From contig CAZBMV010000004.1 of NCBI GenBank assembly GCA_964493145.1, forward strand, positions 1-43,468: a stretch of DNA of 43,468 nucleotides, given 5' to 3'. The translations under genes were made by a program, and so were the position numbers. Shown in pieces: positions 18,612-41,573 of this stretch. Positions within the stretch are counted from its first letter, which is position 1. Each line of letters starts with the position of its first letter. The notes under the pieces were generated by a model. That model ran no database searches, had not been told where the DNA came from, and saw only the letters and a program-made list of their open reading frames with translations. The stretch comes from an uncultured Candidatus Saccharibacteria bacterium. Its GTDB lineage: Bacteria > Patescibacteriota > Minisyncoccia > Phycocordibacterales > UBA918.

Positions 18612-20264
18612 CTACCCCTTTGCAAGGAATCCGCGGTCTCTGAGGTACGCGAGTATTTCCTCCACGAGTTCTTCCGGCGTCGCTTCCTCCGTCTTTGCGA
18701 CGAGTTCCGGATTCTCCGGTCGCTCGTACGGGTCATCAACACCGGTGAAGTTCTTAAGGAGTCCCTGCCGCGCCTTCTCATAGAGCCCTTTCGTATCGCG
18801 TCGCGCGCACTCATCAAGTGATGTGTCCACAAATATCTCAATGAACTCACCATGCTCCTCCACCATCGCGCGCACGCGGCGGCGTGCATCGCGATACGGC
18901 GCAATGAGTGAACAGATGACGATGCCACCGTGGCGAACGATTTCACTCGCCACAAACCCGACACGCTTCACGTTCTCATCACGATCCTCCTTTGAAAATC
19001 CGAGTCCCTTTGAGAGGTGTTCGCGAATGACGTCTCCATCAAGAAATGTGATGTTTCTGTCCTGAAGTTCCTGAAGACGCGAGAGAAGCAGTTGCGCGAG
19101 CGTTGACTTTCCCGAACACGAAAGTCCGGTGAAAAAGAACGCGATGCCGGGGCGTGAATCTTTGCTGACGCTGTCGCGCAAAATGGCAATACTCTCCTTG
19201 AACGAGAACCACTCCGGGATCTCTTCCCCTTCGCGAAGACGCCGACGAAACTCAGTTCCCGAAATAGTTTCAATTTCATCGTCAGGTGTCACCTCGTGTG
19301 ACGCCACGTACGCGTCGCGCGTCTTTGAGTACGCGAGTTCATCCGAAGGGACAACGGTGATACCAATCTCGTCTGCACATTTCTCTACGAGGTCACGTGC
19401 ATCATAGGGGCCGTAAAAATCCTTTCCATCGCTCCCTTTCCCCGGGCCCGCGTGATCCCTCCCCACAATGAAGTGCGTGCACCCGTAGTTCTTTCGTATG
19501 ATGGCGTGCCAGAGGGCCTCACGCGGGCCCGCCATGCGCATTGCGAGGGGCAGGAGCGAAAGTTCCATAAAATCCTTTCCGTGCGTGTTACACACCGCAT
19601 TGTACGTGCGCACACGGGTCACGTAGTCAATATCCCCCGGCTTCGTCATGCCGACGACGGGATGTACGAGAACGGGGGCACCAACCTTTTCATGAGCGCG
19701 CCTCACGAGTTCAAAGTGGGCACGATGCATCGGGTTCCGTGTTTGAAAGCCGACGACCTTGTCCCACCCACGTTCCTTAAAGAGCGCTTTGAGTTCTTGA
19801 GGCGTCTTCCGCAGGTGCGCAAAATCATTCCGCATAGGGAGTGCGATTTTGGTCACCGTACCGCCGAAGTACGTATCACCCATCTCATCAAAGAGGTACT
19901 GCACACCGGGGTGTGCCCGATCTTCGGTACCGTACACGTTTCGCGCCTCTTCGTTCTTGTCCGGGGTGTAGCGGGACGTAATGTGCATTGTCGCCAATGG
20001 ATTTCCAAACGGGTCGCAGAGGAGTACATCGTCACCAACCTTGTACGGACTGTCATTATGAACGTCAAGAACAATGGGAATAGGAAACAGCGTCCCATCG
20101 GGGAGGCGCATCGTTTCAACGACGGCGTTATACTCCTCTTCGGTCATAAAGCCCGTAACCGGCGCAAAACCACCTACGAGCATCACCTCCAAATCATGAA
20201 GCACCCTTCCACGCAAGTTAATTCTCGGTAAACGCACCATGTCGCTCTTTTGTGTTTCGTCCAT
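18612..20264 (-). CDS. sat: Bifunctional ATP sulfurylase / APS kinase (PAPS synthesis)
   Basis: QTRNPMHRAH, LPLAMRMAGPREALWHAIIRKNYGCTHFIVGRDHAGPG; C-terminal CysC domain GLSCSGKST, LDGDVIR, LYEKARQG..NFTGVDDPYE. Start uncertain (20264, 20240 or 20345). Confidence 0.95.
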   Translation of the reverse strand: MDETQKSDMVRLPRINLRGRVLHDLEVMLVGGFAPVTGFMTEEEYNAVVETMRLPDGTLFPIPIVLDVHNDSPYKVGDDVLLCDPFGNPLATMHITSRYTPDKNEEARNVYGTEDRAHPGVQYLFDEMGDTYFGGTVTKIALPMRNDFAHLRKTPQELKALFKERGWDKVVGFQTRNPMHRAHFELVRRAHEKVGAPVLVHPVVGMTKPGDIDYVTRVRTYNAVCNTHGKDFMELSLLPLAMRMAGPREALWHAIIRKNYGCTHFIVGRDHAGPGKGSDGKDFYGPYDARDLVEKCADEIGITVVPSDELAYSKTRDAYVASHEVTPDDEIETISGTEFRRRLREGEEIPEWFSFKESIAILRDSVSKDSRPGIAFFFTGLSCSGKSTLAQLLLSRLQELQDRNITFLDGDVIREHLSKGLGFSKEDRDENVKRVGFVASEIVRHGGIVICSLIAPYRDARRRVRAMVEEHGEFIEIFVDTSLDECARRDTKGLYEKARQGLLKNFTGVDDPYERPENPELVAKTEEATPEELVEEILAYLRDRGFLAKG

Positions 20265-20368
20265 ACGCTCAAATGTAACCACCACAATAGCACATTTGTT
20301 CCACTTCATAGAAAAACAGGGTGACGGAAATAATAAACAGATCAATCGTGTTTATTCCGTTTGGTCTG

Positions 20369-24139: not shown

Positions 24140-24169
24140 TAGAAAAAAGAGCCAAAGGATTGGCTCTTT
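24139..24169 (-). terminator. Terminator hairpin R3, copy 2 (after gmhA)
   Basis: ATAGAAAAAAGAGCCAAAGGATTGGCTCTTT, differing from copy 1 only in A-run length. Confidence 0.8.
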
Positions 24170-24184
24170 TGAAAAGTACTTCCC

Positions 24185-24796
24185 TCACGTCCCGTGAAGA
24201 AAATCCACGGAATCTGCAAGAACGAAGTGTTGGTCTAGAAAATCGCAGAGAATGTGAATGAGCATGATGTGACACTCCTGAATGTGCGGAGTCTCGTCAG
24301 ACGGAACGATGATTGCCTCGTCACAGAGTCTGCGTTTATGCAGTTCTCCACCATCTCGTCCGAGGAGCCCAAAAACAAAGAGCCCCCGCGTATGCGCCAT
24401 CTCAGCGGCTTCAACCAAATTTCCGGAATTACCGCTCGTTGAAATGACGACGAGCACATCGCCCGCACACCCGTGTGCCTCAACCTGTCGTGCGAAAGCC
24501 GATGTGAATGAGTGGTCATTTCCCCACGCGGTGAGCGCCGAGGTGTCACAGTGGAGTGCGAGTGCGGGACGCGCCTTCCGCTTTGCCAAAAACTGACACG
24601 TAATCTCTGCGGCAAAGTGCTGTGCATCTGCGGCACTTCCACCGTTTCCGGCAATGAGCGTTTTTCTCCCACCTTCGTACACGTAGACGAGTTTCTCCGC
24701 CATACGAGAGACGGTGTTGAGTGCACTATCATCATGAAGTAGACGATTTTTCACTCTCACTGACTTCTCAATGGATTCACGAATATACCCGAGCAT
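24185..24796 (-). CDS. gmhA: Sedoheptulose-7-phosphate isomerase (SIS domain)
   Basis: AGNGGSAADAQHFAAE, WGNDHSF..FARQVEA, ISTSGNSGN, IQECHIMLIHILC; SD AAGGAGG upstream. Confidence 0.92.
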   Translation of the reverse strand: MLGYIRESIEKSVRVKNRLLHDDSALNTVSRMAEKLVYVYEGGRKTLIAGNGGSAADAQHFAAEITCQFLAKRKARPALALHCDTSALTAWGNDHSFTSAFARQVEAHGCAGDVLVVISTSGNSGNLVEAAEMAHTRGLFVFGLLGRDGGELHKRRLCDEAIIVPSDETPHIQECHIMLIHILCDFLDQHFVLADSVDFLHGT

Positions 24797-24877
24797 TACA
24801 TCCTCCTTGAAAGGAACAAAATACTACGTGACGGTACCATAGAGGTACGACACATTCAATGTATACGGGCGTTGTAC

Positions 24878-25588
24878 CTACTTATTGAGTTTAATACGTC
24901 GCTCTTTCTCCACTCCAAAATCACTATCCTCTTCCGAAATGCGACTGATGTCATCCTCGTCTGAAGGACCAACTTGAACCTCCATAACGTCAAGCGGTTC
25001 ATTGTCGGGCGCTTGAAGCACATGCCAGACACCAGGTAAATTCACCCGCACTTCACCATTCGGCATGAAAAAGAATTCGCTCCGTTTTGAGTGTTTCTGA
25101 AGAGAGAGACTCTTCCCCGCGTCAACGTGAATGAGCTTAACCTTTACCATCGGCATATCTATGATGACGTTGTAGTGTCCCCAGCGAGTTTCTACACGTG
25201 ACCGAGAATTCACAATTGAACTGGATGCGTACTTCCCTCCACCGAGTTCAAATACCGGCTCAATACCCAACTGTTCACAGAGCAGAAGTTCCGGCGTATT
25301 GCCAGGACCACGATCTCCACCGTTCCCAAAGTAATCCGGCTTGATTCTCGCAAGTGCCTCACACACCGTTCCGTCGGTGTCATCAACAGAATGAATGAAT
25401 GGGGTATACGCCTCAAGAATTTTCTTTCTATCAATCCACGGCTGAAATAGAAACCCCTTCTTACGAATGAGCCACGCATCACTATTGAGAATAATATGGA
25501 CCTCACCATACTCTCGCGCCGATTCAATCATTGCAATGTGCCCCGGGTGTATGGGATCAAATCCACCTGAAATCATTATTTTTTTCAT
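24878..25588 (-). CDS. Cytidylyltransferase-like (HxGH) domain fused to a cupin (type II mannose-6-P isomerase-like)
   Basis: SGGFDPIHPGH...FGNGGDR...GGGKYASSS, then ETRWGHY...KSLSLQKHSKRSE...EVQVG..DEDDISR. Confidence 0.85.
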   Translation of the reverse strand: MKKIMISGGFDPIHPGHIAMIESAREYGEVHIILNSDAWLIRKKGFLFQPWIDRKKILEAYTPFIHSVDDTDGTVCEALARIKPDYFGNGGDRGPGNTPELLLCEQLGIEPVFELGGGKYASSSIVNSRSRVETRWGHYNVIIDMPMVKVKLIHVDAGKSLSLQKHSKRSEFFFMPNGEVRVNLPGVWHVLQAPDNEPLDVMEVQVGPSDEDDISRISEEDSDFGVEKERRIKLNK

Positions 25589-25687
25589 ACAATCTGTAAC
25601 TCAAACAATACCATATTTGTTTCTTTTGATAAAAAGGTGGTAACTGAACGCTCTTGTGTTTTGTTAAATGGTAGACTGATTAAAATT

Positions 25688-26926
25688 ATGATAAACGCTT
25701 TACGAGAAGGGGTTAGAAAAAAAAGACAACACATTATACACTTTTCTTTTTTTTCACTTGGAACTGCCGTAATGACACTGGGTGGCTTTTTGTCTGTTGT
25801 AATCCTTGCCAACACAATAAGTGCAACTGACTACGGTAATTATAAATATATATTTTCTGTGGTTGGTTTGCTTGGAGTACTAGGTTTTACTGGCGGCTTC
25901 AGAAACATGATAATTCAGTCGGTCGCGCAGGGGTTGGACGGCATTTTTGTATCACTGTTGAGATCAAATTTACTCCTCAGTATACCTATGCTCCTCGGAG
26001 GAATTGGCGTTGGATGTTATTACATAATTCATGACAATGAACTTCTTGGGTATTCCATAATGATTGCAACATTGGGATCTATTCTTGGAAACAATGGCAT
26101 CCTCGCCTACGCATATCTTAACGGGAGAAAACTTTATACAAAACTTTTTAAATTTCAAGCGATACAGAGTGCAGTAAACGTAGTTGCCCTCGTATCCGTC
26201 ACACTACTTACGGAAAACCTTTTTATTATTATCCTCACGCAAGTAAGTACAACAGCAATACTGTTAACAGTATTTTACTACTTTATTAAAAAGACTATGC
26301 TCAGAAACGAAGATGTGAGCACGTCTATCACCACATATGGAAAACACCTCAACATTCTAAGTGTAATCACAACACTAATGATGAATATTGACAGTGTCCT
26401 TATATTCAAAATTATCGGGTCACACGGCTTGGCAACATATGCCCTCGCCACGCCGTTTGTTGATCGCATAACTGGTCTCCTCAAGGGCACCTATTTTTTT
26501 GCCCTGCCTTCATTTACTTCACAAGGACACACGCGCGCACGAATACGCCTCTACAAAAGAAGTCTTCTGGGGCTTTTTGTAGGCTTTATAATTTTTCTGA
26601 TATATTATTTCACCGCGCCTATTTTATTTAAATTCTTTTTTCCTAGTTACACAGAAGCAATTCAATTATCAAGACTCTTTGCGCTGAATATCCCACTTAT
26701 CGCTTTGTCCATTTTGCCTGATGCATTTCTTGACTCAATGGCGGAAGTAAAAAGTAAATATATAGTTAAGGCAACAACAACATCATTTCGTATTGTTTTG
26801 CTTTTATTATTCATTTACCCATTTGGTATAGTTGGGGTAATTTGGTCTGAATTGATTGCCCGTCTTGCTGGGTTGGTTATGACAATAATTCTAATTGAAC
26901 GATACATGAAACGTACTCAGTCATGA
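25688..26926 (+). CDS. Wzx/MATE-like oligosaccharide flippase
   Basis: About 12 TM segments, ANTISATDYGNYKYIFS, NIDSVLIFKIIGSHGLATYALA, YPFGIVG. Confidence 0.85.
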   Translation: MINALREGVRKKRQHIIHFSFFSLGTAVMTLGGFLSVVILANTISATDYGNYKYIFSVVGLLGVLGFTGGFRNMIIQSVAQGLDGIFVSLLRSNLLLSIPMLLGGIGVGCYYIIHDNELLGYSIMIATLGSILGNNGILAYAYLNGRKLYTKLFKFQAIQSAVNVVALVSVTLLTENLFIIILTQVSTTAILLTVFYYFIKKTMLRNEDVSTSITTYGKHLNILSVITTLMMNIDSVLIFKIIGSHGLATYALATPFVDRITGLLKGTYFFALPSFTSQGHTRARIRLYKRSLLGLFVGFIIFLIYYFTAPILFKFFFPSYTEAIQLSRLFALNIPLIALSILPDAFLDSMAEVKSKYIVKATTTSFRIVLLLLFIYPFGIVGVIWSELIARLAGLVMTIILIERYMKRTQS

Positions 26927-26941
26927 TTCAAATAACAAAAA

Positions 26942-26965
26942 AGTGGCACACTGAAGTGTGCCACT
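26942..26965. terminator. Bidirectional terminator between the convergent flippase and synthase genes
   Basis: AGTGGCACAC-TGAA-GTGTGCCACT. Confidence 0.75.
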
Positions 26966-26981
26966 AATATATATCTACGTG

Positions 26982-28043
26982 CTAAAAATTTTTTATGCGA
27001 CGCAATTTTTCCATCACGGGCACCTCGCGAGGAAGTACCTGTTTAGTGTCAACTCCAATCAAAATCGGAACACGAACCGATTCTTCTGGCAGTGCCCATT
27101 CTTCTGACGAGAGACAACGCTGCGTTCCGCGTTTCGTTTCAATGGAACGGATATCGTTTACCATCGCCTCAAACATCTGTGGTGTGATGCTTGCCTTCTG
27201 ATCGCTACCAGGAAGGTTTTGATCAAGCGTAATGTGCCGCTCCACCACAGTAGCTCCGAGTGACACTGCAAGTTTAGATGCGAGAATATCGCTTTCATGG
27301 CCACTATAACCAATCGGAACACCATGGAATTCATTCTTGAGCGACTTAATCACTGCAATATTTGCCTCCGCATCATTGCTCGGATACGTAGCCACACAAT
27401 GCAGGATTACAAGTTGCTCACGGCCAAGAATACTGACCGCTTTTTTTATCTGTTCCATGGTTGAACCGCCTGTTGAAAGAATCACCGGACGACCACAACG
27501 GCGCACACGACGTAAAAGATCTTCATGGGTAAGGCAGGCGGAAGCAATTTTGTGGAAATCGGGCTGAAAACCGTCAATCTCAAAAACACTGATCCCATCC
27601 CAAGCACTTACCCCCCATGCAACACCCTCTTCTTCGCAACACTGCCGAACCATGTCCCATTCCTTGGGACCAAATTCAAGAGCGTACTTCAGATCGCTAT
27701 TGTACGTTTGAACTTCTGCTCCACCGAGCCAAGATTCAAGACGCTCCCGTTGACCTTCTTCAGGAAACACCGGGTGAACGATACCCTCAATAACAGACCG
27801 TTTGAAAGCATTTTCAATAAAACTACGATCAAACGTACGCGGGGTGCGAAGTTCCAAACTAGAGTACACAATAGGTACGTCACGTTTTTGAAACTTCACC
27901 GCATTAGCACCGGCTTTTGCGGCGGCGCGAATGAGATTGCACGCCATCTCAATAGAGCCATTGTGGTTAATACCAATTTCAGCGATGACGAAACATGGTG
28001 CCCCATCGCCGACATTGCAATGCCCAATTTGCACTTGTGCCAT
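26982..28043 (-). CDS. neuB: N-acetylneuraminate/KDN-type nonulosonate synthase family protein
   Basis: FVIAEIGINHNG, NAVKFQKR, KIASA, ILSTGGS, LHCVATYP, GYSGHE, VERHITLD, GSDQKAS. Substrate unknown; SD GGAGG. Confidence 0.9.
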   Translation of the reverse strand: MAQVQIGHCNVGDGAPCFVIAEIGINHNGSIEMACNLIRAAAKAGANAVKFQKRDVPIVYSSLELRTPRTFDRSFIENAFKRSVIEGIVHPVFPEEGQRERLESWLGGAEVQTYNSDLKYALEFGPKEWDMVRQCCEEEGVAWGVSAWDGISVFEIDGFQPDFHKIASACLTHEDLLRRVRRCGRPVILSTGGSTMEQIKKAVSILGREQLVILHCVATYPSNDAEANIAVIKSLKNEFHGVPIGYSGHESDILASKLAVSLGATVVERHITLDQNLPGSDQKASITPQMFEAMVNDIRSIETKRGTQRCLSSEEWALPEESVRVPILIGVDTKQVLPREVPVMEKLRRIKNF

Positions 28044-28196
28044 AAGAACTTCCTCCACTTAGAGATGAAAGGATTAATTACCGAGTAGGATACTACCACT
28101 AGCATCACACAATATCAAGTATCACACGTCAATTGGGAATAGCGACCGATTCCCTACTTATGAGAACCATATTTCTGTACACTTGGTTGCACTTTT

Positions 28197-28712
28197 CTAA
28201 TAGTAGATAGGTACGTTCTTCGCATTTAAAACTATGTCACACAGTTCACGCAATGCATGGTCACCACCTTTTCTTGTAAGAACAATATCAGCGACTTTTT
28301 TTACTTCTTCGTGGCCATCGGCAACCGTCACACCAACGCCAGCGGAAACGAGTGCTTCAACATCATTCACATCGTCTCCGATGAAAGCAATCTGCTCCAT
28401 GGCAACCCCTTCACGCTCCGCAAGTGACTTGAGAATCTCCAACTTTCCGAATGCGTCGTGAACTCCGTGGAAACATTCGATATTAAGTTTTTTACAGCGC
28501 GCCGCGACCACCGAATTTTCCTCTTTCGATATGACAAACAGTTTTATACCGGCACATTTGAGCATATTGAGACCAAGACTGTCCTTGCGGCTGCATCTTA
28601 CTGTTTCAATACCATTTTGATCGACATACACAAAACCATCCGTGTGGACACCATCAAAGTCCATTGCTAATAAAGCGATGTTTTTTATTTTTTCGAAGGA
28701 ATCAACGGCCAT
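28197..28712 (-). CDS. KdsC/YrbI-family HAD phosphatase (KDO-8-P/KDN-9-P type)
   Basis: MDFDGVHTDG, IGDDVND, GGDHALRE. Confidence 0.9.
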   Translation of the reverse strand: MAVDSFEKIKNIALLAMDFDGVHTDGFVYVDQNGIETVRCSRKDSLGLNMLKCAGIKLFVISKEENSVVAARCKKLNIECFHGVHDAFGKLEILKSLAEREGVAMEQIAFIGDDVNDVEALVSAGVGVTVADGHEEVKKVADIVLTRKGGDHALRELCDIVLNAKNVPIYY

Positions 28713-28716
28713 GTGT

Positions 28717-29688
28717 TTACGCTTTATATAAAAAGGCGTTGAAAACGCGCTTTGATGTATACAATAAATCGCGCATGCACTCTAGGTCTGTTTCTTTAGT
28801 AAAGCCAGCAGGTTTTCCTGGTGCTCCTATTTTCTTATTTAGATATTTTAACAAAGCGTTCAGTTCTGACTTCGGATTCACTGTAATTACAACTTTATTG
28901 TAATGAAATTGCTTTAAAAGTTGCATAATCCTTTCCTTTTGCTTGTCGTTTAAGAACATTGGATGAAACTCAATCAGAAGAGTTGTGTTACCAGAGAGGG
29001 TTTTTTGCATACCTTCCAAAATTGAAATTTCGAACCCCTCAACATCCATTCTCAAAAAAGATGGCGCCTTCCCAATAATTTTTTCTACAAAAACATCAAC
29101 GGTAGTCATCGGTACTTTTTCCACTCCCACAACCCCACCGCGTGCATCTGATGGTAATTCTGTGAGTGAAGAAAGATTTTTCTTTGAACGAATGTAAATT
29201 GGTATTTCTCTTTCAGCATCGCCCATAGCCATCTGGAATGTTTTTACGTTATTCATCCCATTTAATTCAACATTTTTTTGCAATAACTCATAATTACTCT
29301 TCACTGGTTCAACCGCATATACAACACCGGTATCACCCACAAGTTTTGACTCTGGAAGAGCGTAGTATCCAATATTTCCTCCAATATCCAAAACGGTATC
29401 GCCAGTTTGTATGGTATTTGAGCTCAGCAAATAATCGACGGTGAGCACCTCCCTTTTTCCGTAAAGAATGAGTTCTTTTGATAAGCCATCATCATTTTTT
29501 AAATCTAAATGCATTTTAACACCATTAATTTCAAGAATGGCGTATCCAAAAACACACTTACGATACAGGTAATAAACGTACCTAAAATTATTTGGGATTA
29601 TTCTAACGAGCATTCTATAGAAGGAATCTCGTATTCCGTACTCTTTAATTTTTTGAACAAAAAAAGAAATGGTCATATGCTTAAACAT
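28717..29688 (-). CDS. FkbM-family methyltransferase
   Basis: VLDIGGNIGYY, YAVEPV, FLRMDVEGFE. Start 29688 or 29676. Confidence 0.9.
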   Translation of the reverse strand: MFKHMTISFFVQKIKEYGIRDSFYRMLVRIIPNNFRYVYYLYRKCVFGYAILEINGVKMHLDLKNDDGLSKELILYGKREVLTVDYLLSSNTIQTGDTVLDIGGNIGYYALPESKLVGDTGVVYAVEPVKSNYELLQKNVELNGMNNVKTFQMAMGDAEREIPIYIRSKKNLSSLTELPSDARGGVVGVEKVPMTTVDVFVEKIIGKAPSFLRMDVEGFEISILEGMQKTLSGNTTLLIEFHPMFLNDKQKERIMQLLKQFHYNKVVITVNPKSELNALLKYLNKKIGAPGKPAGFTKETDLECMRDLLYTSKRVFNAFLYKA

Positions 29689-29916
29689 AGAAAGTTATAT
29701 TGGTGATGTCGCTGTATTGTATACCACAGAGAGTAATATTCCACTCATCATGTTTTGTATAGTGAGGCTTATAACTATATAAAAATCAAAAAGTATACAA
29801 AAACCGTAATCACAACATCGAGAGACGCACTAGACGTAATAGGAAAACAATTGTACTATCACGCCAGTTGTTCTTCACATTCTTCCACATAACTCGTGTT
29901 TTTGAAAGGAAAATCC

Positions 29917-31620
29917 ATGGGAAAGACACTCATGCACTACTCTTCGGAGAACAAGCACCCGAGTGATCGGGTCGCTCTCCTTCCCCGAAATGCACTAAGT
30001 GGTATGCATGTGTGTTTCATCAACATGCCCCTCCGCGAAAGTGCACGACCGAATACGCCACCACAAGGTCCGGCACTCATGGCGGCACGTCTCCGTGAAT
30101 ACGGAGCGAACGTCACGATTGTTGACCTCAACGCGTATCGCATCACCGACACCTTTGCACATGAACGCAGTCTTGCAAACGGTCGCCACCTGAACGAAAA
30201 AGAGGCGGCGGATCTCTTGCTTGCTCACTTCAACGTTCATGGAGCACCTGATGTCATTGGGCTCTCGGGTAAAATAACGACGCTCAAATGGCAACAGTGG
30301 GTGACACGTTTCTGTGCGAAAGTCGTCCCCGATGCGTTTATTGTTTCGGGTGGCGGCCTCGCAACGGAGTTTCGTGCGGGTCTCTTTAACTGGATACCCG
30401 AACTTGATGCGGTTGGACACTCGGAAGGTGATGACATTATCCTCCTCTGTGTTCACGATGTGAAAACTGCCGGAAATAAGACATCGGCAATGACATCGTT
30501 ACCGAGTTACATCGGTGACCGCAACGGTAAGCCGAGGTTCATCTATGCCGGAGACAGGCCGAGAGACCTTGATGTGTTGCCATTCGCGGCGTGGGACTTA
30601 CTTGAAAGGGACGTGTACGGAAACCCGGTTCTTGAGTGGTACATCACCACTCCCGTGTGGGGCCTCGCCGCGAACAATTCATCTGCGGCGAATTTCATCA
30701 CGGAACGGAGTCTAACCACCGTCTCATCCCGAGGATGTCCGCACGCATGTGCGTTTTGCTACCGTGGAGCGCAAGGTGAACGTAACTGGGGCATCAGGAG
30801 CCCACAAAACCTCCGGGAGGAGGCTGAGTGGCTCATCAATGCGTACCGCATTGATTTCCTCGGATTCCCCGATGATAACTTTGCGGTTTCGCCCAAGCGG
30901 TGCCAAGCGTTGCCTGAAGCATTCAATGGTCTCAACTTCCGTTGGGGAACGCACACGCGACTAGATGAGTGCACCATGGACCGCCTTGAACCAATGGCGG
31001 AATCAGGGTGCATTTACATCGGCGTTGGTGCTGAGAGTGCCTCAAAGAACACCCTCTATCGCATGAAGAAGGGTGGACACATTATCAAGAAACACGGCGT
31101 GGAGCGCTTCACAACGGTTGACGGCTATGAGTTCCCCACCATGATGGTGGAAGGAATACAGAACTGCCGATCGGTGGGCATACACGTGAATGCGACATGG
31201 ATTATGGGGTACCCGAGAGAAACACTCGGAGATCTCAAGACGAGCGTCGCTTTCATCAAGTGGCAAGAGGAGCTCTACACGCAGGGGCTCGCGAACGGTA
31301 CGCCGGAGTTTGCACTCGCGATGGCATCAGTCAATAGGAGGATGTTCACCGCAACCGCATACCCCGGTACCGAGATGTTTCGTGATCCATTCGTGCAACA
31401 AGCGCTTCGGGAACACTTCGGTCTTTCGTTTGAACAAAATGGAGACCCCGTGTGCGATAGTGCCTTAGAGTGGTACGTACGCGAACTTGACGATGCAACG
31501 AAAGTCCTTACGGGAAAAGGTGGCGCACCGCTCAATTTTTCCGATATGTCTGAAGACGTTTTTCTTCAGGCGCGCGCGTACATTGATTCCGGTCAAACCG
31601 AAAAAATACTTGAGATGTAA
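29917..31620 (+). CDS. Cobalamin-dependent (B12-binding) radical SAM enzyme
   Basis: N-terminal B12-binding-like segment (PPQGPALMAARL...DVIGLSG...VSGGGLAT), SRGCPHACAFC (CxxxCxxC), FPDDNF, IGVGAES, WIMGYPRET. Confidence 0.9.
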   Translation: MGKTLMHYSSENKHPSDRVALLPRNALSGMHVCFINMPLRESARPNTPPQGPALMAARLREYGANVTIVDLNAYRITDTFAHERSLANGRHLNEKEAADLLLAHFNVHGAPDVIGLSGKITTLKWQQWVTRFCAKVVPDAFIVSGGGLATEFRAGLFNWIPELDAVGHSEGDDIILLCVHDVKTAGNKTSAMTSLPSYIGDRNGKPRFIYAGDRPRDLDVLPFAAWDLLERDVYGNPVLEWYITTPVWGLAANNSSAANFITERSLTTVSSRGCPHACAFCYRGAQGERNWGIRSPQNLREEAEWLINAYRIDFLGFPDDNFAVSPKRCQALPEAFNGLNFRWGTHTRLDECTMDRLEPMAESGCIYIGVGAESASKNTLYRMKKGGHIIKKHGVERFTTVDGYEFPTMMVEGIQNCRSVGIHVNATWIMGYPRETLGDLKTSVAFIKWQEELYTQGLANGTPEFALAMASVNRRMFTATAYPGTEMFRDPFVQQALREHFGLSFEQNGDPVCDSALEWYVRELDDATKVLTGKGGAPLNFSDMSEDVFLQARAYIDSGQTEKILEM

Positions 31621-31630
31621 CATATCTCAC

Positions 31631-31657
31631 AAAGGGGGTCACGCGACCCTCTTTTTT
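31631..31657 (+). terminator. Intrinsic terminator of the radical SAM gene
   Basis: AAAGGGGGTC-ACGC-GACCCTCTTT followed by TTT. Confidence 0.75.
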
Positions 31658-31676
31658 ATTTTTAATTCCGGATCAT

Positions 31677-32393
31677 TTATGAAGAAAAGCTCTCTCTTCG
31701 TTTTAGTATTTGCTCAATCAGCCAAAGTTGATACTCATTATCAATTTGAATAGAATCCTCTTCCGTCATTTCTACAATACCCATTCGTCCACCCCAACGA
31801 TGTCCGCACCCCATTAGGAAGTCACATTTAGTAACATAAAAAGCACCGTTTTCATGGTAAATCTTTGGAAGATCTTGGCGAACAACACGTTGCATTACAG
31901 GTCGCTCTGGCGTAAAGGATTGAAAACCCTCTGAGTTATTGTCAACAGACCATTTCCATTCATATGTGTCAGGAACAAACGCCGTGATACAAGAATCACA
32001 TTCATTATTAAACACCTTTCCTACACTTTCCTTAATGGTATTTGGCTTAAGAAGTGGCGAGGTTGGTTGGATCAGAGACACAATATCTGGAACATAATTT
32101 TCTTTTTCCTCAAGTTGTTTAAGGGCATCAAAAATAACGGGTTCAAGGGTAACCTTATCACCAGCAAGCTCAACAGGACGTTTAATAACTTCTGCTCCGC
32201 ATTCCAGTGCGACTTTTGCAATTTCTTCATCTTCTGTTGAAACAAACACCCTATCTATTACGCCTGATTCTTGTGCTGCTGAAATGGTATGTGCAATTAG
32301 TGGCTTATCATAGACACTCCTAATATTTTTCCTTGGTACACCCTTGCTTCCTCCACGGGCGGGGATGATACAAATTACTTTCTTTTTATCCAT
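31677..32393 (-). CDS. neuA: Acylneuraminate (CMP-nonulosonate) cytidylyltransferase
   Basis: IIPARGGSKGVPRKN, IKRPVELAGD, IQPTSPL, YHENGAFY, SIQIDNEY. Confidence 0.92.
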   Translation of the reverse strand: MDKKKVICIIPARGGSKGVPRKNIRSVYDKPLIAHTISAAQESGVIDRVFVSTEDEEIAKVALECGAEVIKRPVELAGDKVTLEPVIFDALKQLEEKENYVPDIVSLIQPTSPLLKPNTIKESVGKVFNNECDSCITAFVPDTYEWKWSVDNNSEGFQSFTPERPVMQRVVRQDLPKIYHENGAFYVTKCDFLMGCGHRWGGRMGIVEMTEEDSIQIDNEYQLWLIEQILKRRESFSS

Positions 32394-32413
32394 AACAAGA
32401 GTTAACTAAATAA

Positions 32414-33799
32414 TTATTCATTACAACATGCCTCATTGAGCAAAAGTTGTGTAATTCTTTCTGAGGCCTTTCCATCCATCTTCCACATGTGGGTCTCGGC
32501 AAATTTTCTACGTTCAGTTCGATGAGTTTCAGGATGTTGGAGATATGTATTAATCCACTCAGCCAACTCATCCGATGAACGAACAAGTGGTGAGGCTCCG
32601 TGTGAAAAGAAATATACAACACATTCTTCTGTTTGCCATCGAGCAAGACTTCGGAGAAAGGGTACTTCTTTTTCCCAACCATCAAATCCGATTGAAATAA
32701 CCGGCTTATCACAAATTACAGCGTCAACGATAATTGATGAGAACGTGTTAATCACAAGTGATGAGTGAGCGAGTGTATCCGCAAGGTGGAGCCTGTTCGC
32801 CTTCCCTTCCTCACGGGCTTTTGAACGTTCTCCCTTATACACTGTAAGATTTTCCTCAAAGATGAAGTTTTTATCGGGCGTAAATTTACTGTAATCAGTG
32901 TCGTTGTACGGATGCGGGCGAACGAGAAATTGAATACCTTGCGGGATTTTTCTTTCGTTATAAAGTTTTTGCAAGATAGCGAGTATTTGCCAATCAGTAT
33001 CAACAAAAACTCCTGACGCTGGGCACACGAGAATGATTGTTTTTGTTGGATCTAAATTCAATCCTCTACAAAATTCTTCACGTGGAGTTGGTTCATAATT
33101 AAGATATTCTTCAAATTGGGGTACACCACACGGAATAATGCGTGAAAAAGGCACATCATGAATTCTGTTTAATTCTTCTTTCATAACTTCGTTTTGCGTT
33201 ATTATTTTGTCTGGAATGGTACGCAAATACACTTTTGTAGTCGTATTGTCCCATGATCGTGTCATACCAACTGTACGAATCTTCCGCCTTTTTGCGCTAT
33301 GCAACAATGCAACATTTGAAGCATCAAAAATATCGGTTGCGAATACCACATCAGGACAATATTTTTCAAAAAGCACCTCAAAAGTTTTTGAACGTACAAT
33401 GTGATAATCAAAAAACCTAAACAACTGCTTAAAAAGGGTTGAATGTCCGAGAGTTTTGGTAATTGCCGTTTCAATAGAATATCGCAACTTACTGCCAGTT
33501 TGCTCACGACGTACCATGCGATGATATTTTTTTACTGTGGTATCAAGTAGTAAATCGGCAAAACGTTCAAAATGTAAATTCCACCAACGAGTAGCAATCC
33601 ATTCAAATGGAATACCTTCTATGATCACATTATCATAGTTTGCATACGTATCTACAAAGTATTGTTTTTTACTCTCCAAAACAAGAATAATCACTTTTGT
33701 TTGGGGAACAAGATAGTCAAGAACACCCGCATCAAGAATATTGCGTGTCACAAACGGATGAAAATTTGCTAAAAAGATTGTGTTTATTTTTTTTGGCAT
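32414..33799 (-). CDS. GT-B fold transferase (CDP-glycerol:glycerophosphate transferase-like), candidate nonulosonate transferase
   Basis: SWDN, GVPQF, VRPHP, INTFSSIIVDA..DKP. Confidence 0.7.
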   Translation of the reverse strand: MPKKINTIFLANFHPFVTRNILDAGVLDYLVPQTKVIILVLESKKQYFVDTYANYDNVIIEGIPFEWIATRWWNLHFERFADLLLDTTVKKYHRMVRREQTGSKLRYSIETAITKTLGHSTLFKQLFRFFDYHIVRSKTFEVLFEKYCPDVVFATDIFDASNVALLHSAKRRKIRTVGMTRSWDNTTTKVYLRTIPDKIITQNEVMKEELNRIHDVPFSRIIPCGVPQFEEYLNYEPTPREEFCRGLNLDPTKTIILVCPASGVFVDTDWQILAILQKLYNERKIPQGIQFLVRPHPYNDTDYSKFTPDKNFIFEENLTVYKGERSKAREEGKANRLHLADTLAHSSLVINTFSSIIVDAVICDKPVISIGFDGWEKEVPFLRSLARWQTEECVVYFFSHGASPLVRSSDELAEWINTYLQHPETHRTERRKFAETHMWKMDGKASERITQLLLNEACCNE

Positions 33800-34899
33800 A
33801 CCGCACGAACAACTGATATGGTTTTATTAACAATAAATTTCTGTTCAGCAATTGTAAGTTGTGTATAAAGAGGTAGCGTAATAGTACCTAAACCAATTTC
33901 TTCGGCATTTGGATACATCCCCTTCTTGTACCCGAGTTTTTTATAGTATGGTTCAAGATGAACGGGGTTGTAATGAATATCTGCAGGAACACCCACCTCT
34001 CTTAATTGTTTCCGGATTATATCCCTCTTTTTTACATCTACCACAATGGTGAACATGTGGCAGGCATTTTTTGCATTTTTCACCTCTTCAATAAGCCGTA
34101 TACCGGGAATATTTTTGAGTGTCTGCGCATAATACTGATATACTTTACGACGTTTTTTCCACTCGCTTTCAATACGATCAAGTTGACCGAGAAGCATCGC
34201 TCCTTGCATATTTGTCATACTATACTTGTAGCCAAGTCTTGTCATATGACGTATGGCACCACTTCTATCAGAGCCGGAATCATTGAGAAGTCGCACCTCC
34301 TTTTCAGTCTTGATCGTGTGAACACCCACTGCACCACCCTCTCCTGCCGTGATATTTTTTGCTGCATGGAAACTGTAACAACTTGCAAATGATAACTGCC
34401 CCGGTCGAATACCGTCACGACACGCCTCTAGAGCATGTGGTGCATCTTCAATAATTTTAAGTTTATGTTTTTTTGCAAGCGCTGCAAGTCCTTTCATGTC
34501 AGCCATTTGTCCGTAAAGATGAACAGGTATAATTGCTTTTGTTTTTTTTGTTATTGCTTTTTTGACCGCATCAACTGAAATGAGTCCTGTCTCAGGCTCT
34601 ACATCAACAAAAACAATTTTCGCTCTCACAAAAAGAATGACGTTGCTCGTTGCCCAAAATGTAAGCGGGGTTGTGATTACTTCATCACCTGGACCGACTC
34701 CGGCAGCAAGAAGTGCCGTATGAAGTGCCGCTGTTCCACTACTGTTTGCAACAATGTACGGAAGTCCAAGGTATGTCCCCAGTTTTTTTTCAAAAAGTTT
34801 GAGTTCGGGTCCTGTCGCAAGCCAGCCGGACCTGAGCGCTTTTGTGACCGCTTGTATATCTTGTGCTGTGAGATTGGGATTCAGAAATGATAATTTCAT
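33784..34899 (-). CDS. DegT/DnrJ/EryC1/StrS PLP aminotransferase
   Basis: NSSGTAALH, IIPVHLYG, IEDAPHA, SFHAAKNITAGEGG. Confidence 0.95.
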   Translation of the reverse strand: MKLSFLNPNLTAQDIQAVTKALRSGWLATGPELKLFEKKLGTYLGLPYIVANSSGTAALHTALLAAGVGPGDEVITTPLTFWATSNVILFVRAKIVFVDVEPETGLISVDAVKKAITKKTKAIIPVHLYGQMADMKGLAALAKKHKLKIIEDAPHALEACRDGIRPGQLSFASCYSFHAAKNITAGEGGAVGVHTIKTEKEVRLLNDSGSDRSGAIRHMTRLGYKYSMTNMQGAMLLGQLDRIESEWKKRRKVYQYYAQTLKNIPGIRLIEEVKNAKNACHMFTIVVDVKKRDIIRKQLREVGVPADIHYNPVHLEPYYKKLGYKKGMYPNAEEIGLGTITLPLYTQLTIAEQKFIVNKTISVVRAVCQKK

Positions 34900-34901
34900 G
34901 G

Positions 34902-35621
34902 TCAGATTTTTTCAAAAACGAGCAACTTATACTTTGACTTAGTATAACCAATAAAACAAAGAATGCGTTCCAACATTCTCGTGAGATGGTATGATACCGC
35001 GTTTTTGCCAAAATAAAAAAAAAGGAATCCATCAATAAAATTCACATGTTTAATTTCTTTTTGCACAAAACCTGACGCATTAAATTTTTCTGTAATTTCT
35101 TCAATTGTTTCCACTTTCTTATATGTCAGTTTTTTTTGAAAAACAGGAATTGAGTGCGGTACATACTCAAGAAGCATTACTCTACTTCCTTTTTTCATTC
35201 GGTTCACATAGGAATAAAATGTGGCGCGTACTTCTGGAGAAAAGTGTACGTACACAGTTGTTGTGACGACCCCGTCTGCTTTTTCAATTGCCTCACTGAT
35301 AGATTGGTGCGGTATAGAAAAAGGATGAAATGTGATTTGCAAATTATTCCCATAGCGTTCTTTTGCAATCTTAATATTGAATGGAAAATCAAATGCATCA
35401 ATGTGAGCCGTGGTGAGTTTCGCAATTTCCATAGTGTACTCACCGATACCGCAACCAATATCAACAATTTGACTCATGCCTACAAAATCAGACTTTTTGA
35501 ATGCACGGGTACGCATCCTAAAAGCATACAGGTCTTGCCATTTATTGTGATAGTGACATGGGTTATCACCCTTTTCAGTTTGTTCCTTCCAATATTCTTC
35601 TACACCTTGCGTATTGAGCAT
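34902..35621 (-). CDS. Class I SAM-dependent methyltransferase
   Basis: IVDIGCGIGEYT. Confidence 0.8.
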   Translation of the reverse strand: MLNTQGVEEYWKEQTEKGDNPCHYHNKWQDLYAFRMRTRAFKKSDFVGMSQIVDIGCGIGEYTMEIAKLTTAHIDAFDFPFNIKIAKERYGNNLQITFHPFSIPHQSISEAIEKADGVVTTTVYVHFSPEVRATFYSYVNRMKKGSRVMLLEYVPHSIPVFQKKLTYKKVETIEEITEKFNASGFVQKEIKHVNFIDGFLFFYFGKNAVSYHLTRMLERILCFIGYTKSKYKLLVFEKI

Positions 35622-35627
35622 ATTGTA

Positions 35628-36770
35628 TTAAATAATTGAGTTGTACACCTCAAGGTAATGAGTACTGATATCATCCCAAGAATGTTTCTTGGCCTCAGCG
35701 AGAGCATTTTCGGACATACGAGTACGAAGTATTGAATCACCGACTATTTTTTTGATTGCTTCGGCAAGGTCTACATAATCATTTTGTGGAACCAAAAAGC
35801 CGTTGTGGCCATTTTTAATGACATATTCTGAACCAAACCCGTATGTACTAATTACCGGAGCACCTAGAGCGTGTGCTTCATAAAACACCATGGGGAAACC
35901 TTCAAATGCCCCATCTACAGTTTGTGCTGCGAGCACGAAGGCTGTACAAGTACTGTAAAGTTCTAATAATTGCTCATCATTTACACGTCCCAAAAGTTCT
36001 ACCCTTCCCACCAGCCCCAGTTTCTTAATTTCGTTACGAAGTTCTTGCACGTACGGCGTTTCAATATATGAACCACCAATTTTGTATATGAGATCGGGGA
36101 ATTCATCTTTGAGTAACCCAAGAGCACGAATCGTATAGAGAGCACCTTTACGTGGTTTCACTGAACCAATAGTAAGAAGGAATGGCAGACTCGGCTTTGA
36201 GTATTCACGATTCTTATGGTATCTGTCTAAATCTACACCAAATGGCACAAATTTCCATTTATTTTTAAGAGGAACCACCTCTTCAATGAGTTCAATGTTT
36301 TTATGTGAACCAGTAGCAATAAACGTAGCCTGTTGATACATGAATTTCATAAGCATTCTTTTTACCCGTTCGCGGAAATGTCTCCCCTTAGGAACAACAC
36401 AGTAAGTACCCGCCAGCGTAATCACAAGCGGCTTCCTAAGACATTTCGCTGCAAGAGCGGCACCGGGAGCAAATGGTTCAATGAAAACATGAATAACGTC
36501 GCAAGAACGTAAGTACCTAAGAGTCGCAAAAAAGACTTGGAATTGAACGAGAAGAGAATACGAAGTGTGATGATTGGGAAGCACACGATGAATTGAATAT
36601 GGAACAGAATCGTTTTGAGCACCACGCGATGTAAGAACCACAACTGGTTGTTTTTTTGCAATTGCACCAATAATTCCCTTTGAGAGAGTGCCCCAACCAC
36701 CTTCATATGAGACTGATGAGGTGATACAACCGACGGTGTACTGCCTCTCCTTTTCTTTTGTTACATTCAT
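35628..36770 (-). CDS. GT4 glycosyltransferase
   Basis: VPFGVD, IGSVKPRKG, EGFPMVFYEA..LGAPVI; ATGA overlap with the upstream gene. Confidence 0.9.
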   Translation of the reverse strand: MNVTKEKERQYTVGCITSSVSYEGGWGTLSKGIIGAIAKKQPVVVLTSRGAQNDSVPYSIHRVLPNHHTSYSLLVQFQVFFATLRYLRSCDVIHVFIEPFAPGAALAAKCLRKPLVITLAGTYCVVPKGRHFRERVKRMLMKFMYQQATFIATGSHKNIELIEEVVPLKNKWKFVPFGVDLDRYHKNREYSKPSLPFLLTIGSVKPRKGALYTIRALGLLKDEFPDLIYKIGGSYIETPYVQELRNEIKKLGLVGRVELLGRVNDEQLLELYSTCTAFVLAAQTVDGAFEGFPMVFYEAHALGAPVISTYGFGSEYVIKNGHNGFLVPQNDYVDLAEAIKKIVGDSILRTRMSENALAEAKKHSWDDISTHYLEVYNSII

Positions 36771-37777
36771 GCTTTCTTCTTCTGATTCTTTACGTACCAC
36801 TCGTATGTATGTTGCAACCCAACATTCAATGAAGTCCTTGGAGTCCACCCAACGTCGGTTTTAATCTTTGCAATGTCCGCCGCCCGTCGTTTTACACTTC
36901 CAGCAGGTTCATCCTTGATTTCGATGTTTTTCGGTCTCCATCCGGCAATAGTAAATAATTTTTCTGCAAGATCATTCATTGAAATTTCATCTGCATACTC
37001 CTGCCCAATGTGGTACGTTTGACCGTCCGTTTTATGAGATTCCATAACCAATTGCATTGCCTCAACCGCATCACTCATATAGCAAAAGGTTCGTGTATTG
37101 TCTGCACCATAAATTGGGAATGGGTCAACTTTATTAACGATGCGCTCAATGAACTGCGGTATGACATGGTCGTACCCCGTGCGTGGGCCATAGAAATTAT
37201 GTGGGCGCACGATAACAGTTCTGAGCCCGAGTTGTTGTGCGTAATGAATATAAAAAAGTTCACCAATCAATTTTGTTCCGGCATACGTCCAACGAGGATT
37301 GTATGTGTCTGAAATAACAAGTGGAACCGCTTCAGGTGTTGGAATGGGAAGTGAATCAAATGAAGAAAGACCTCCTGCGTACGCTTCATTAGAAGATGTA
37401 TACAATATTTTTCCTTCGGGATTCTTGTCCTTCATCCACTCAAGACTATGTACAATGGTCTTGATGCCAATACGCAAGACCTCGCCTGGCATTTTATAGA
37501 AAAGACCTGTGCCATTAATACTTACAAGTTGATATATGTAATCATATCCGCCACCAAGTGCGTCCCATCCTTCACGTGTGGTAAGATCCCCTTCAATCAG
37601 AGTTACGTTGGGGTGGGTAAGAACCTCATGGAACATATGGTCGCGCTTCCCGCGAAAAAAATTATCGGCAATGGTAACCGCATATCCAGACTGTGCAAGT
37701 TTGTGTACGAGATAGAGCCCCACCGATCCAGCGCCTCCCGCAACAAGAACTTTCTTTTTTTGATCTTCCATACTCAT
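36767..37777 (-). CDS. NAD-dependent nucleotide-sugar epimerase/dehydratase
   Basis: VAGGAGSVG, YTSSNEAY, YAGTK, RPHNFYGP. Confidence 0.93.
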   Translation of the reverse strand: MSMEDQKKKVLVAGGAGSVGLYLVHKLAQSGYAVTIADNFFRGKRDHMFHEVLTHPNVTLIEGDLTTREGWDALGGGYDYIYQLVSINGTGLFYKMPGEVLRIGIKTIVHSLEWMKDKNPEGKILYTSSNEAYAGGLSSFDSLPIPTPEAVPLVISDTYNPRWTYAGTKLIGELFYIHYAQQLGLRTVIVRPHNFYGPRTGYDHVIPQFIERIVNKVDPFPIYGADNTRTFCYMSDAVEAMQLVMESHKTDGQTYHIGQEYADEISMNDLAEKLFTIAGWRPKNIEIKDEPAGSVKRRAADIAKIKTDVGWTPRTSLNVGLQHTYEWYVKNQKKKA

Positions 37778-39411: not shown

Positions 39412-39575
39412 GCTTCTGAACCAACGGCGACTCAAGGCCAATAGGCAACGTAGTATATACCATACTGGCGTTTATTACTAAATGAGAAGACGAAAGGTTC
39501 TGGAAAGAAAAATGTTCGTTAAAAGGTTGGTAATGGGCAAGAAACTTGGTTCGTTTACTAATCAAAACAAAACTA

Positions 39576-40724: not shown

Positions 40725-40730
40725 GCAATG

Positions 40731-41567: not shown

Positions 41568-41573
41568 ACGTGT

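Follow-up and report, generated by a model that had tools for sequence, protein, structure and literature searches.

The region at positions 24185-33799 of the window analysed here, a 43,468-nt stretch of DNA (contig CAZBMV010000004.1) from an uncultured Candidatus Saccharibacteria bacterium (GCA_964493145.1), appears from sequence comparison to carry this bacterium's version of a widespread, as yet uncharacterised cassette for a CMP-activated 3-deoxy-2-ulosonic acid made by a phosphorylated route. In the best reading of its chemistry, to which we give an even chance, heptose-7-phosphate would be condensed with phosphoenolpyruvate (PEP) into a ten-carbon (C10) 3-deoxy-ulosonic acid. The genome belongs to the Patescibacteria, has a size of 778 kb and is 99% complete, and the whole-genome absences given below rest on that assembly. 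Every gene named in the original prediction for this region was found where it had been placed. The features are the following:

24145-24170, minus strand: terminator-like hairpin 3' of gmhA, closing the transcription unit of the fusion gene and gmhA
24185-24796, minus strand: GmhA-type sedoheptulose-7-phosphate isomerase, 203 aa (SIS_2 match)
24878-25588, minus strand: fusion of a CTP_transf_like domain (small HxGH nucleotidyltransferase) and a PMI-type cupin (Pfam and NCBIfam matches)
25637-26926, plus strand: Wzx-like flippase (Polysacc_synt domain match), conserved beside NeuB in relatives
26942-26965, no strand: hairpin terminator separating the convergent genes for flippase and NeuB
26982-28058, minus strand: SAF-less NeuB-family PEP-condensing synthase, 358 aa (NeuB domain PF03102, 210 bits)
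28197-28712, minus strand: KdsC-type (C0 HAD-IIIA) ulosonate-phosphate phosphatase, 171 aa (TIGR01670, 118 bits)
28717-29688, minus strand: FkbM-family methyltransferase, probable tailoring enzyme (family match)
29896-31620, plus strand: class B (B12-type) radical SAM enzyme with a probable tailoring role, such as C-methylation
31631-31654: the radical SAM gene's own terminator
31677-32393, minus strand: CMP-ulosonic acid synthetase (CTP_transf_3, PseF-like; profile matches)
32414-33799, minus strand: TagF-like (Glyphos_transf)/BFO_1060-like transferase, candidate CMP-ulosonate transferase or polymerase
33784-43409, minus strand: remaining glycan island (DegT aminotransferase, methyltransferases, two GT4 glycosyltransferases, SDR dehydratase/epimerase, two truncated UDP-sugar dehydrogenases, AsnB-like amidotransferase)

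The genes at 33784-43409 provide the polymer with its other sugars and lie outside the ulosonate core.

The synthase, the only NeuB copy in the genome, aligns in two blocks to the structures 1VLI, 6NCS and 8H2C. It carries a lineage-specific insertion at approximately residues 62-125 and ends about 45 residues past the barrel, with a tail conserved in the subfamily alignment (GDGxKRV...KLRR); no match to the SAF (antifreeze-like) C-terminal domain was found in it. The phosphatase gene is separated from neuB by 138 nt, and its product exceeds the cut-off of TIGR01670 (107 bits). Against structures, it scores 107 bits with KdsC (4UM5) and 81 bits with the KDN-9-phosphate phosphatase 3E81. The CMP-transferase matches PF02348 at 98 bits and the PseF model at 141 bits, the latter below the model's cut-off. 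The original prediction had seen no UDP-GlcNAc 2-epimerase in the window; this is true and extends to the whole genome, where no match to PF02350 (Epimerase_2, the hydrolysing NeuC) was found. The combination of synthase, KdsC-type phosphatase and CMP-transferase with no NeuC supports the predicted phosphorylated route. We also looked at the pseudaminic/legionaminic (Pse/Leg) routes, in which a KdsC-type phosphatase has no part: the DegT aminotransferase of the island reaches 309 bits with the PseC model (cut-off 423), and an SDR dehydratase is present with no Epimerase_2.

The association of these genes recurs in the relatives of the synthase. A KdsC-type HAD gene adjoins NeuB in 52 of 80 loci. 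Of the 47 loci flanked on each side by 6 kb or more, 33 have such a gene at most 6 kb from NeuB and 15 have a GmhA-like gene within that distance, so the co-localisation is not due to chance. Moreover, the 80 loci, which span many phyla, include gene fusions of KdsC-type HAD and GmhA (5/80) and of CMP-transferase and KdsC-type HAD (25/80), and these place GmhA in a single pathway with the phosphatase and CMP activation. The fully annotated operons (L014, L056, L065, L094 and L095) have neither a kinase nor an NDP-sugar nucleotidyltransferase. Against the C10 reading, in two loci of other phyla (L030 and L042) the GmhA near NeuB belongs to an ordinary NDP-heptose locus. The B12-type radical SAM gene is conserved with the module in Patescibacteria loci L003, L004, L006, L008 and L094, and the FkbM methyltransferase is also found in L003 and L095. 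The candidate transferase of the original prediction is plausible: it resembles the BFO_1060 family, and its counterparts always adjoin the CMP-transferase gene in L003-L008 and L094.

The isomerase is about 48% identical to the solved GmhA proteins 1TK9 and 2X3Y. It scores 169-181 bits with the GmhA equivalog models, under their cut-offs, and its zinc-binding and catalytic motifs are intact; NeuB-linked GmhAs in general keep all canonical active-site motifs. It clusters with the NeuB-adjacent Patescibacteria copies of L003, G138 and G148. A point against the C10 reading is that, in the window, gmhA shares a transcription unit with the cupin-fusion gene, has its own terminator and is separate from neuB.

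The observation that no heptose kinase or phosphatase was visible holds genome-wide, and the search of the genome for neuC, hldE and gmhB found none. More precisely, there is no HldA/HldE-type kinase, no GHMP-type (HddA) kinase and no TIGR00213 match (GmhB) in the genome, and the only HAD protein of the cluster is of the KdsC type. The sole PfkB protein (contig C5) was considered as a candidate HldA and rejected: its gene adjoins that of a transketolase, it matches the ribokinase model at 87 bits versus 41 bits for rfaE_dom_I, and it gave no match at E<=1e-25. These absences exclude both known NDP-heptose routes, while the transketolase makes sedoheptulose-7-phosphate available. Since GmhA has no other possible use in this genome, the product may be an undescribed C10 acid rather than the nine-carbon (C9) Kdn.

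The distribution of GmhA in a sample of 401 Patescibacteria genomes, including this one, is consistent with such a role. GmhA was found in 42 genomes, 40 of which also encode a heptose kinase, usually adjacent: the kinase is HldA-type in 28 (the immediate neighbour of GmhA in 24 of them) and, in 12 further ones, a GHMP kinase 0.6-7.5 kb away. The only two without any kinase are the present genome and G138, and these are the two whose GmhA adjoins this SAF-less NeuB subfamily. In addition, G148 has two GmhA copies, one adjoining NeuB and the other adjoining a GHMP kinase.

Taken together, the genes suggest the following route. Judging by its family, GmhA would isomerise transketolase-derived sedoheptulose-7-phosphate to D-glycero-D-manno-heptose-7-phosphate, which the SAF-less synthase would condense with PEP into 3-deoxy-dec-2-ulosonate 10-phosphate. 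The KdsC-type phosphatase, given its family and its adjacency, would then strip the terminal phosphate, and the CMP-transferase (31677-32393) would activate the acid. Tailoring by the FkbM methyltransferase and the B12-type radical SAM enzyme could follow, before the TagF/BFO_1060-like enzyme would attach the acid to a surface glycan exported by the Wzx-like flippase. NeuB-family enzymes accept the manno-configured phosphosugars mannose-6-phosphate (Man-6-P) and ManNAc-6-P (PMC6200933). Heptose-7-phosphate is the C7 homologue of Man-6-P, and by analogy this offers a chemical precedent for the proposed condensation. The speculative part of the original prediction, in which GmhA would supply the synthase and a C10 acid would result, has been strengthened by the comparisons (no kinase or GmhB, kinase-free GmhA only where linked to NeuB, gene fusions and canonical motifs). 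We hold a shade less firmly, at slightly under even, the full proposal: that PEP and GmhA-derived heptose-7-phosphate are turned by the cassette into a CMP-activated 3-deoxy-D-glycero-D-galacto-type dec-2-ulosonic acid. This would be a type of surface sugar of bacteria and archaea that lacks a described pathway, and in Patescibacteria it would be further O- and C-methylated (FkbM, B12-type radical SAM), then attached or polymerised by the TagF-like enzyme. A literature search found no paper on the cassette or on deculosonic acids.

The main rival is a Kdn pathway, which we consider possible but rather unlikely. Here, the cupin would make Man-6-P from fructose-6-phosphate, the synthase would yield Kdn-9-phosphate, the HAD would release Kdn, the CMP-transferase would produce CMP-Kdn, and GmhA would be dispensable or used otherwise. 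The three-enzyme set and the missing NeuC match the published route, and the HAD does match the KDN-9-phosphate phosphatase equivalog model (106 bits) as well as 3E81, although it stays under the cut-off of 180 bits of that model. The cupin, 1.4 kb from neuB, may be the source of Man-6-P: it is the only PMI-like sequence of the genome (a 34-bit match), in which no type I PMI was found. This part of the original prediction is nevertheless weakened, as the cupin motif (Q-K-H-S-K-R-S-E) is only partly canonical and the fusion gene is conserved beyond the island. It is an anchor of Paceibacteria at the island edge, with relatives at 70-75% identity in many genomes, including loci without NeuB or GmhA; no GmhA was found within 7 kb of these. 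The synthase itself provides arguments for Kdn. We found no GmhA within 10 kb of the 67% identical NeuB of L004/L005, and none in the whole genomes of three Saccharibacteria, nor in G315 and G121, all of which have close NeuB relatives. The NeuB of GmhA-free genomes must take another substrate. Furthermore, in the search for specificity-determining positions no alignment column splits GmhA-linked from unlinked members, so no adaptation of the pocket to a longer substrate is visible. On the other hand, with Kdn synthesis nothing would use the product of GmhA, in a 778-kb genome devoid of other heptose-pathway genes, and there would be no explanation for the fusions of KdsC and GmhA or for the NeuB-adjacent GmhAs of G138, which is kinase-free, and G148.

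A second alternative, which we regard as improbable, is that the synthase uses another phosphosugar or a dephosphorylated free sugar (a modified heptose or hexose phosphate, ManNAc-6-P, arabinose-5-phosphate) to give a different C8-C10 acid. GmhA alone, or in relatives GmhA with an AP_endonuc_2 epimerase and dehydrogenases, would build the non-standard precursor. The operons of many relatives do add an L-ribulose-5-phosphate-3-epimerase-like (AP_endonuc_2) TIM barrel, a Gfo/Idh/MocA oxidoreductase and an SDR, which implies that precursor chemistry varies across the family, and the NeuB tree has several clades defined by gene context. However, extra precursor enzymes of the AP_endonuc_2 and Gfo/Idh/MocA types are missing from the window, the genome has no KdsA (no PF00793, DAHP_synth_1, match), no NeuC and no KdsD-type isomerase, and the GmhA motifs are canonical. 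The oxidoreductases and SDRs of these operons resemble PtmF and PtmA of the Leg pathway; the idea that PtmF is a SIS protein akin to GmhA proved wrong, since PtmF is listed as an oxidoreductase of 326 aa, and PtmA as a flagella modification protein of 254 aa.

Finally, a non-canonical, NeuB-independent NDP-heptose route, in which a phosphomutase would turn heptose-7-phosphate into heptose-1-phosphate (we know of no such mutase route) for activation by the nucleotidyltransferase co-transcribed with gmhA, an N-terminal domain weakly similar to RfaE domain II (38 bits), is very improbable given that loci lacking GmhA within 7 kb contain the fusion gene at 70-75% identity, that only one of the genomes listed for the class of the window in the 401-genome sample has GmhA, weakly, that the GmhA of G138 lies inside the NeuB operon with no fusion gene nearby, and that the order of gmhA and the fusion gene differs between the window and L003.

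The cassette can be compared with several known systems. With the CMP-Kdn pathway (Bacteroides thetaiotaomicron synthase BT1714 and phosphatase BT1713; Prymnesium parvum; PMC6200933) it would share the condensation of PEP with a phosphorylated manno-sugar by a NeuB-family synthase, and it has in common the KdsC-type C0 HAD for the terminal phosphate, the CMP-transferase and the lack of NeuC. It differs by a canonical GmhA wired into the cassette (and fused to the phosphatase in other phyla), by a SAF-less synthase with a lineage-specific insertion, by a HAD below the KDN-9-phosphate phosphatase cut-off and, possibly, by a heptose phosphate feedstock (C10) instead of Man-6-P (C9). The four-step logic is identical to that of Kdo synthesis (KdsD, KdsA, KdsC, KdsB), with a SIS-type ketose-phosphate to aldose-phosphate isomerase, PEP condensation, KdsC-type phosphatase and CMP activation. 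Yet the isomerase is GmhA-type (SIS_2) and not KdsD (SIS+CBS), the synthase is NeuB-type and not KdsA, and the cell envelope is of the monoderm type, with no LPS. The ADP-/GDP-heptose pathways (GmhA, HldE/HldA or HddA, GmhB, HldC/HddC) share their first step, a GmhA with conserved active-site motifs, whereas the present genome lacks the kinase and GmhB, and GmhA adjoins a kinase in other Patescibacteria. Relative to the canonical NeuC-NeuB-NeuA pathway, Epimerase_2 and the SAF domain of the synthase are missing. Bradyrhizose, a C10 sugar, was discarded as an analogue: its putative cluster is based on a dTDP-glucose dehydratase and is unrelated.

Ulosonic acids such as Kdo, sialic acids, Pse/Leg and Kdn are key surface determinants and, to our knowledge, all their characterised pathways end at nine carbons. 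Mass spectrometry has detected C10 CMP-linked ulosonic acids in Magnetospirillum gryphiswaldense (bioRxiv 10.64898/2026.04.20.719630; Kleikamp et al. cited therein), which is evidence that bacteria have CMP-activated ulosonic acids longer than nine carbons. No pathway is assigned to those acids and no gene cluster was proposed for them; they differ in being di-N-acetylated and Leg/Pse-like. If true, a NeuB/KdsC/CMP cassette fed by heptose would extend the ulosonic acids by a ten-carbon class and provide a genetic handle on these unexplained higher-carbon compounds, with kinase-free GmhA as a simple marker by which other genomes could be screened for the pathway. The retention of such a pathway in the 778-kb CPR genome of an episymbiont implies that the sugar is important at the cell surface or in contact with the host.

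The locus very likely encodes a CMP-ulosonic acid pathway that runs by the phosphorylated route. It lies on contig C4 (the window) of a genome that totals 777,909 bp over 16 contigs, is 99% complete and matches Patescibacteria in our homologue searches. The locus is part of a glycan island that spans from about 24.2 kb to the window end; at low coordinates, inserted accessory genes and a Sat-CysC gene border the island. As first noted, a synthase, a KdsC-type HAD, a CMP-transferase and a candidate transferase are all present.

Genes and terminator-like hairpins of the island
24145-24170, terminator-like hairpin after gmhA
24185-24796, reverse strand, GmhA-type SIS_2 protein
24878-25588, reverse strand, HxGH nucleotidyltransferase::PMI-type cupin fusion (236 aa)
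25637-26926, forward strand, Wzx-like flippase
26942-26965, terminator-like hairpin separating the flippase gene from neuB
26982-28058, reverse strand, NeuB-family synthase
28197-28712, reverse strand, KdsC-type HAD
28717-29688, reverse strand, FkbM methyltransferase
29896-31620, forward strand, class B (B12-type) radical SAM enzyme
31631-31654, terminator-like hairpin after the radical SAM gene
31677-32393, reverse strand, PseF-like CMP-transferase
32414-33799, reverse strand, Glyphos_transf/BFO_1060-like (TagF-like) transferase
Beyond the Glyphos_transf gene, reverse strand, DegT, methyltransferases, two GT4, an SDR dehydratase, two truncated UDP-sugar dehydrogenases and AsnB

The positions of the hairpins imply that gmhA and the cupin-fusion gene form one transcription unit, and the FkbM, HAD and NeuB genes a separate one. 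A 16-nt overlap (33784-33799) joins the DegT stop region to the beginning of the gene for the TagF-like transferase and points to translational coupling between the aminosugar and ulosonate branches. The Sat-CysC gene (18612-20345), 4 kb from gmhA, encodes a PAPS synthase; no sulfotransferase was seen in the window, and in one relative's cassette a Sulfotransfer_1 gene (L045:11685-12701) stands between NeuB and an HAD::GmhA fusion. A sulfated glycan is possible.

The lack of a UDP-GlcNAc 2-epimerase, first noted for the window, extends to the whole 99%-complete genome, where we found no Epimerase_2/NeuC. Searches of the same scope found no second NeuB, type I PMI, KdsA/DAHP synthase or transaldolase, and one NTP_transferase is encoded on another contig. 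The heptose kinase and phosphatase missing from the window are also missing genome-wide: there is no GHMP kinase, no GmhB, and a single PfkB kinase that is ribokinase-like and adjoins the transketolase. Hence, each of the two known NDP-heptose routes is blocked, although a canonical GmhA is retained. Since a transketolase is encoded, sedoheptulose-7-P can form, and the absence of a transaldolase leaves its usual outlet in doubt. The transketolase gene is split and lies beside the PfkB kinase and a glyoxylate-reductase-like dehydrogenase (G000:C5:1-5405, loci L002 and L088 of the window's own genome).

The window SIS protein shares about 48% identity with the GmhA of Campylobacter jejuni (1TK9) and with that of Burkholderia pseudomallei (2X3Y). 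It has retained the motifs GNGGSAADAQH..AE, DTS.LT..GND, STSG.S.N and IQE.H....H, which also occur in NeuB-linked GmhAs of many phyla and in kinase-linked ones. The two kinds of copies interleave in the GmhA tree, where the window protein falls together with the copies that neighbour NeuB in L003, G138 and G148, all from other genomes (SH-aLRT 94). As far as motifs and tree can tell, nothing points to an altered substrate. The order of gmhA and the fusion gene (24185-25588) is swapped relative to L003:12583-13974, whose NeuB is 83% identical, which is suggestive of independent insertion or of a local rearrangement where the island ends.

Of 401 Patescibacteria genomes, 42 contain a GmhA-like gene. 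An HldA-type kinase is found in 28 of the 42: in 24 the two genes are immediate neighbours, in one they are 2.6 kb apart and in three they lie on different contigs. In 12 further genomes a GHMP kinase lies 0.6-7.5 kb from GmhA. These counts describe a pattern and not a statistic, as the sampled genomes include kin. Only the window's genome and G138 have a GmhA without any heptose kinase, and these are the two that combine this lack with a GmhA beside the SAF-less NeuB subfamily. The G138 operon reads SDR, AP_endonuc_2, GmhA, HAD and NeuB, accompanied by genes for a radical SAM enzyme, a CMP-transferase and Glyphos_transf. G148 has two GmhA copies, one abutting NeuB and the other 2.5 kb from a GHMP kinase.

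Judging from these gene contents, the best single reading, in which we place moderate confidence, is that heptose-7-P made by GmhA would be the feedstock of a C10 acid. Such an acid, C10H18O10, would have a calculated monoisotopic mass of 298.09, with 378.06 for its phosphate and a CMP adduct [M-H]- near 602.12, against 268.08, 348.05 and 572.11 for Kdn. A mass-spectrometric study of Magnetospirillum gryphiswaldense reports CMP-linked ulosonic acids built on a C10 backbone, with no pathway (bioRxiv 10.64898/2026.04.20.719630), and our literature search found no paper connecting GmhA with NeuB or dealing with deculosonic acids. The main rival, somewhat unlikely in our view, is that the product is Kdn, made by an established route from Man-6-P and PEP through a phosphatase and a CMP-Kdn synthetase (PMC6200933). 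The cupin had been proposed as the source of Man-6-P, and this part stands insofar as the fusion gene is the sole PMI-like sequence of the genome, so that Man-6-P may be available and Kdn is still a rival. However, the fusion (cupin motif 1, Q-K-H-S-K-R-S-E) is 70-75% identical across many Paceibacteria (including loci L089, L090 and L091) and is conserved at the margin of glycan islands that vary otherwise and contain neither NeuB nor GmhA. We class it as an anchor gene rather than as part of the cluster.

The proposed survey of gmhA-neuB co-occurrence covered 80 NeuB loci across many phyla. In 52 of them, NeuB has a KdsC-type HAD no more than 1.5 kb away, and in 20 it has a GmhA-like gene at up to 10 kb; of these 20, L030 and L042 are ordinary cases of NDP-heptose loci, situated 5-8 kb from NeuB. 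A recurring operon comprises HAD, NeuB, an L-ribulose-5-P-3-epimerase-like TIM barrel, Gfo/Idh/MocA, SDR, GmhA, CMP-transferase and, as transferase, Glyphos_transf or Capsule_synth (Kdo-transferase-like). The fully annotated operons (L014, L056, L065, L094 and L095) yielded neither a kinase nor an NDP-sugar nucleotidyltransferase. KdsC-HAD::GmhA (5/80 loci) and CMP-transferase::KdsC-HAD (25/80) occur as single proteins, and together these fusions join isomerase, phosphatase and CMP activation in one pathway. Six Patescibacteria loci (window 29896-31620, L003, L004, L006, L008 and L094) have a class B radical SAM gene beside the CMP-transferase/NeuB module; its product might, for instance, C-methylate the acid. 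Some Acidobacteriota NeuB/HAD/GmhA loci include a ThDP-dependent, acetolactate-synthase-like enzyme (L054:11349-13268, L013:17053-18855).

Compared with solved NeuB, PseI and SpsE, the window synthase aligns in two blocks with an additional segment (residues ~62-125) between them and stops about 45 residues past the barrel; a profile search of the protein found no SAF domain. Its homologues number in the thousands and all share a C-terminal GDGxKRV...KLRR tail. The insertion is present in the closest ones (64-96% identity, ~353 aa), which are Patescibacteria wherever a source name or traced contig is available, most carrying no name. A shorter form (~287 aa) occurs in Saccharibacteria, Melainabacteria, Chloroflexota, Acidobacteriota, Myxococcota and other phyla. 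Elsewhere, a canonical NeuB+SAF is fused to AP_endonuc_2, a xylose-isomerase-like TIM barrel, in proteins of ~630 aa (L014:16249-18138, G022:C2:67468-68298) and in about 20 further Patescibacteria genomes of family f40; this hitherto undescribed arrangement connects the barrel family with the making of ulosonic acids.

Some synthases of the NeuB subfamily are not accompanied by GmhA: none was found within 10 kb of NeuB in loci L004/L005, nor anywhere in the genomes of three Saccharibacteria, G315 and G121, all of which encode such synthases. Since, in addition, the NeuB tree requires at least four switches in GmhA linkage and we found no alignment column distinguishing GmhA-linked from unlinked NeuBs, it is probable that substrates vary within the family or that GmhA is an optional addition.
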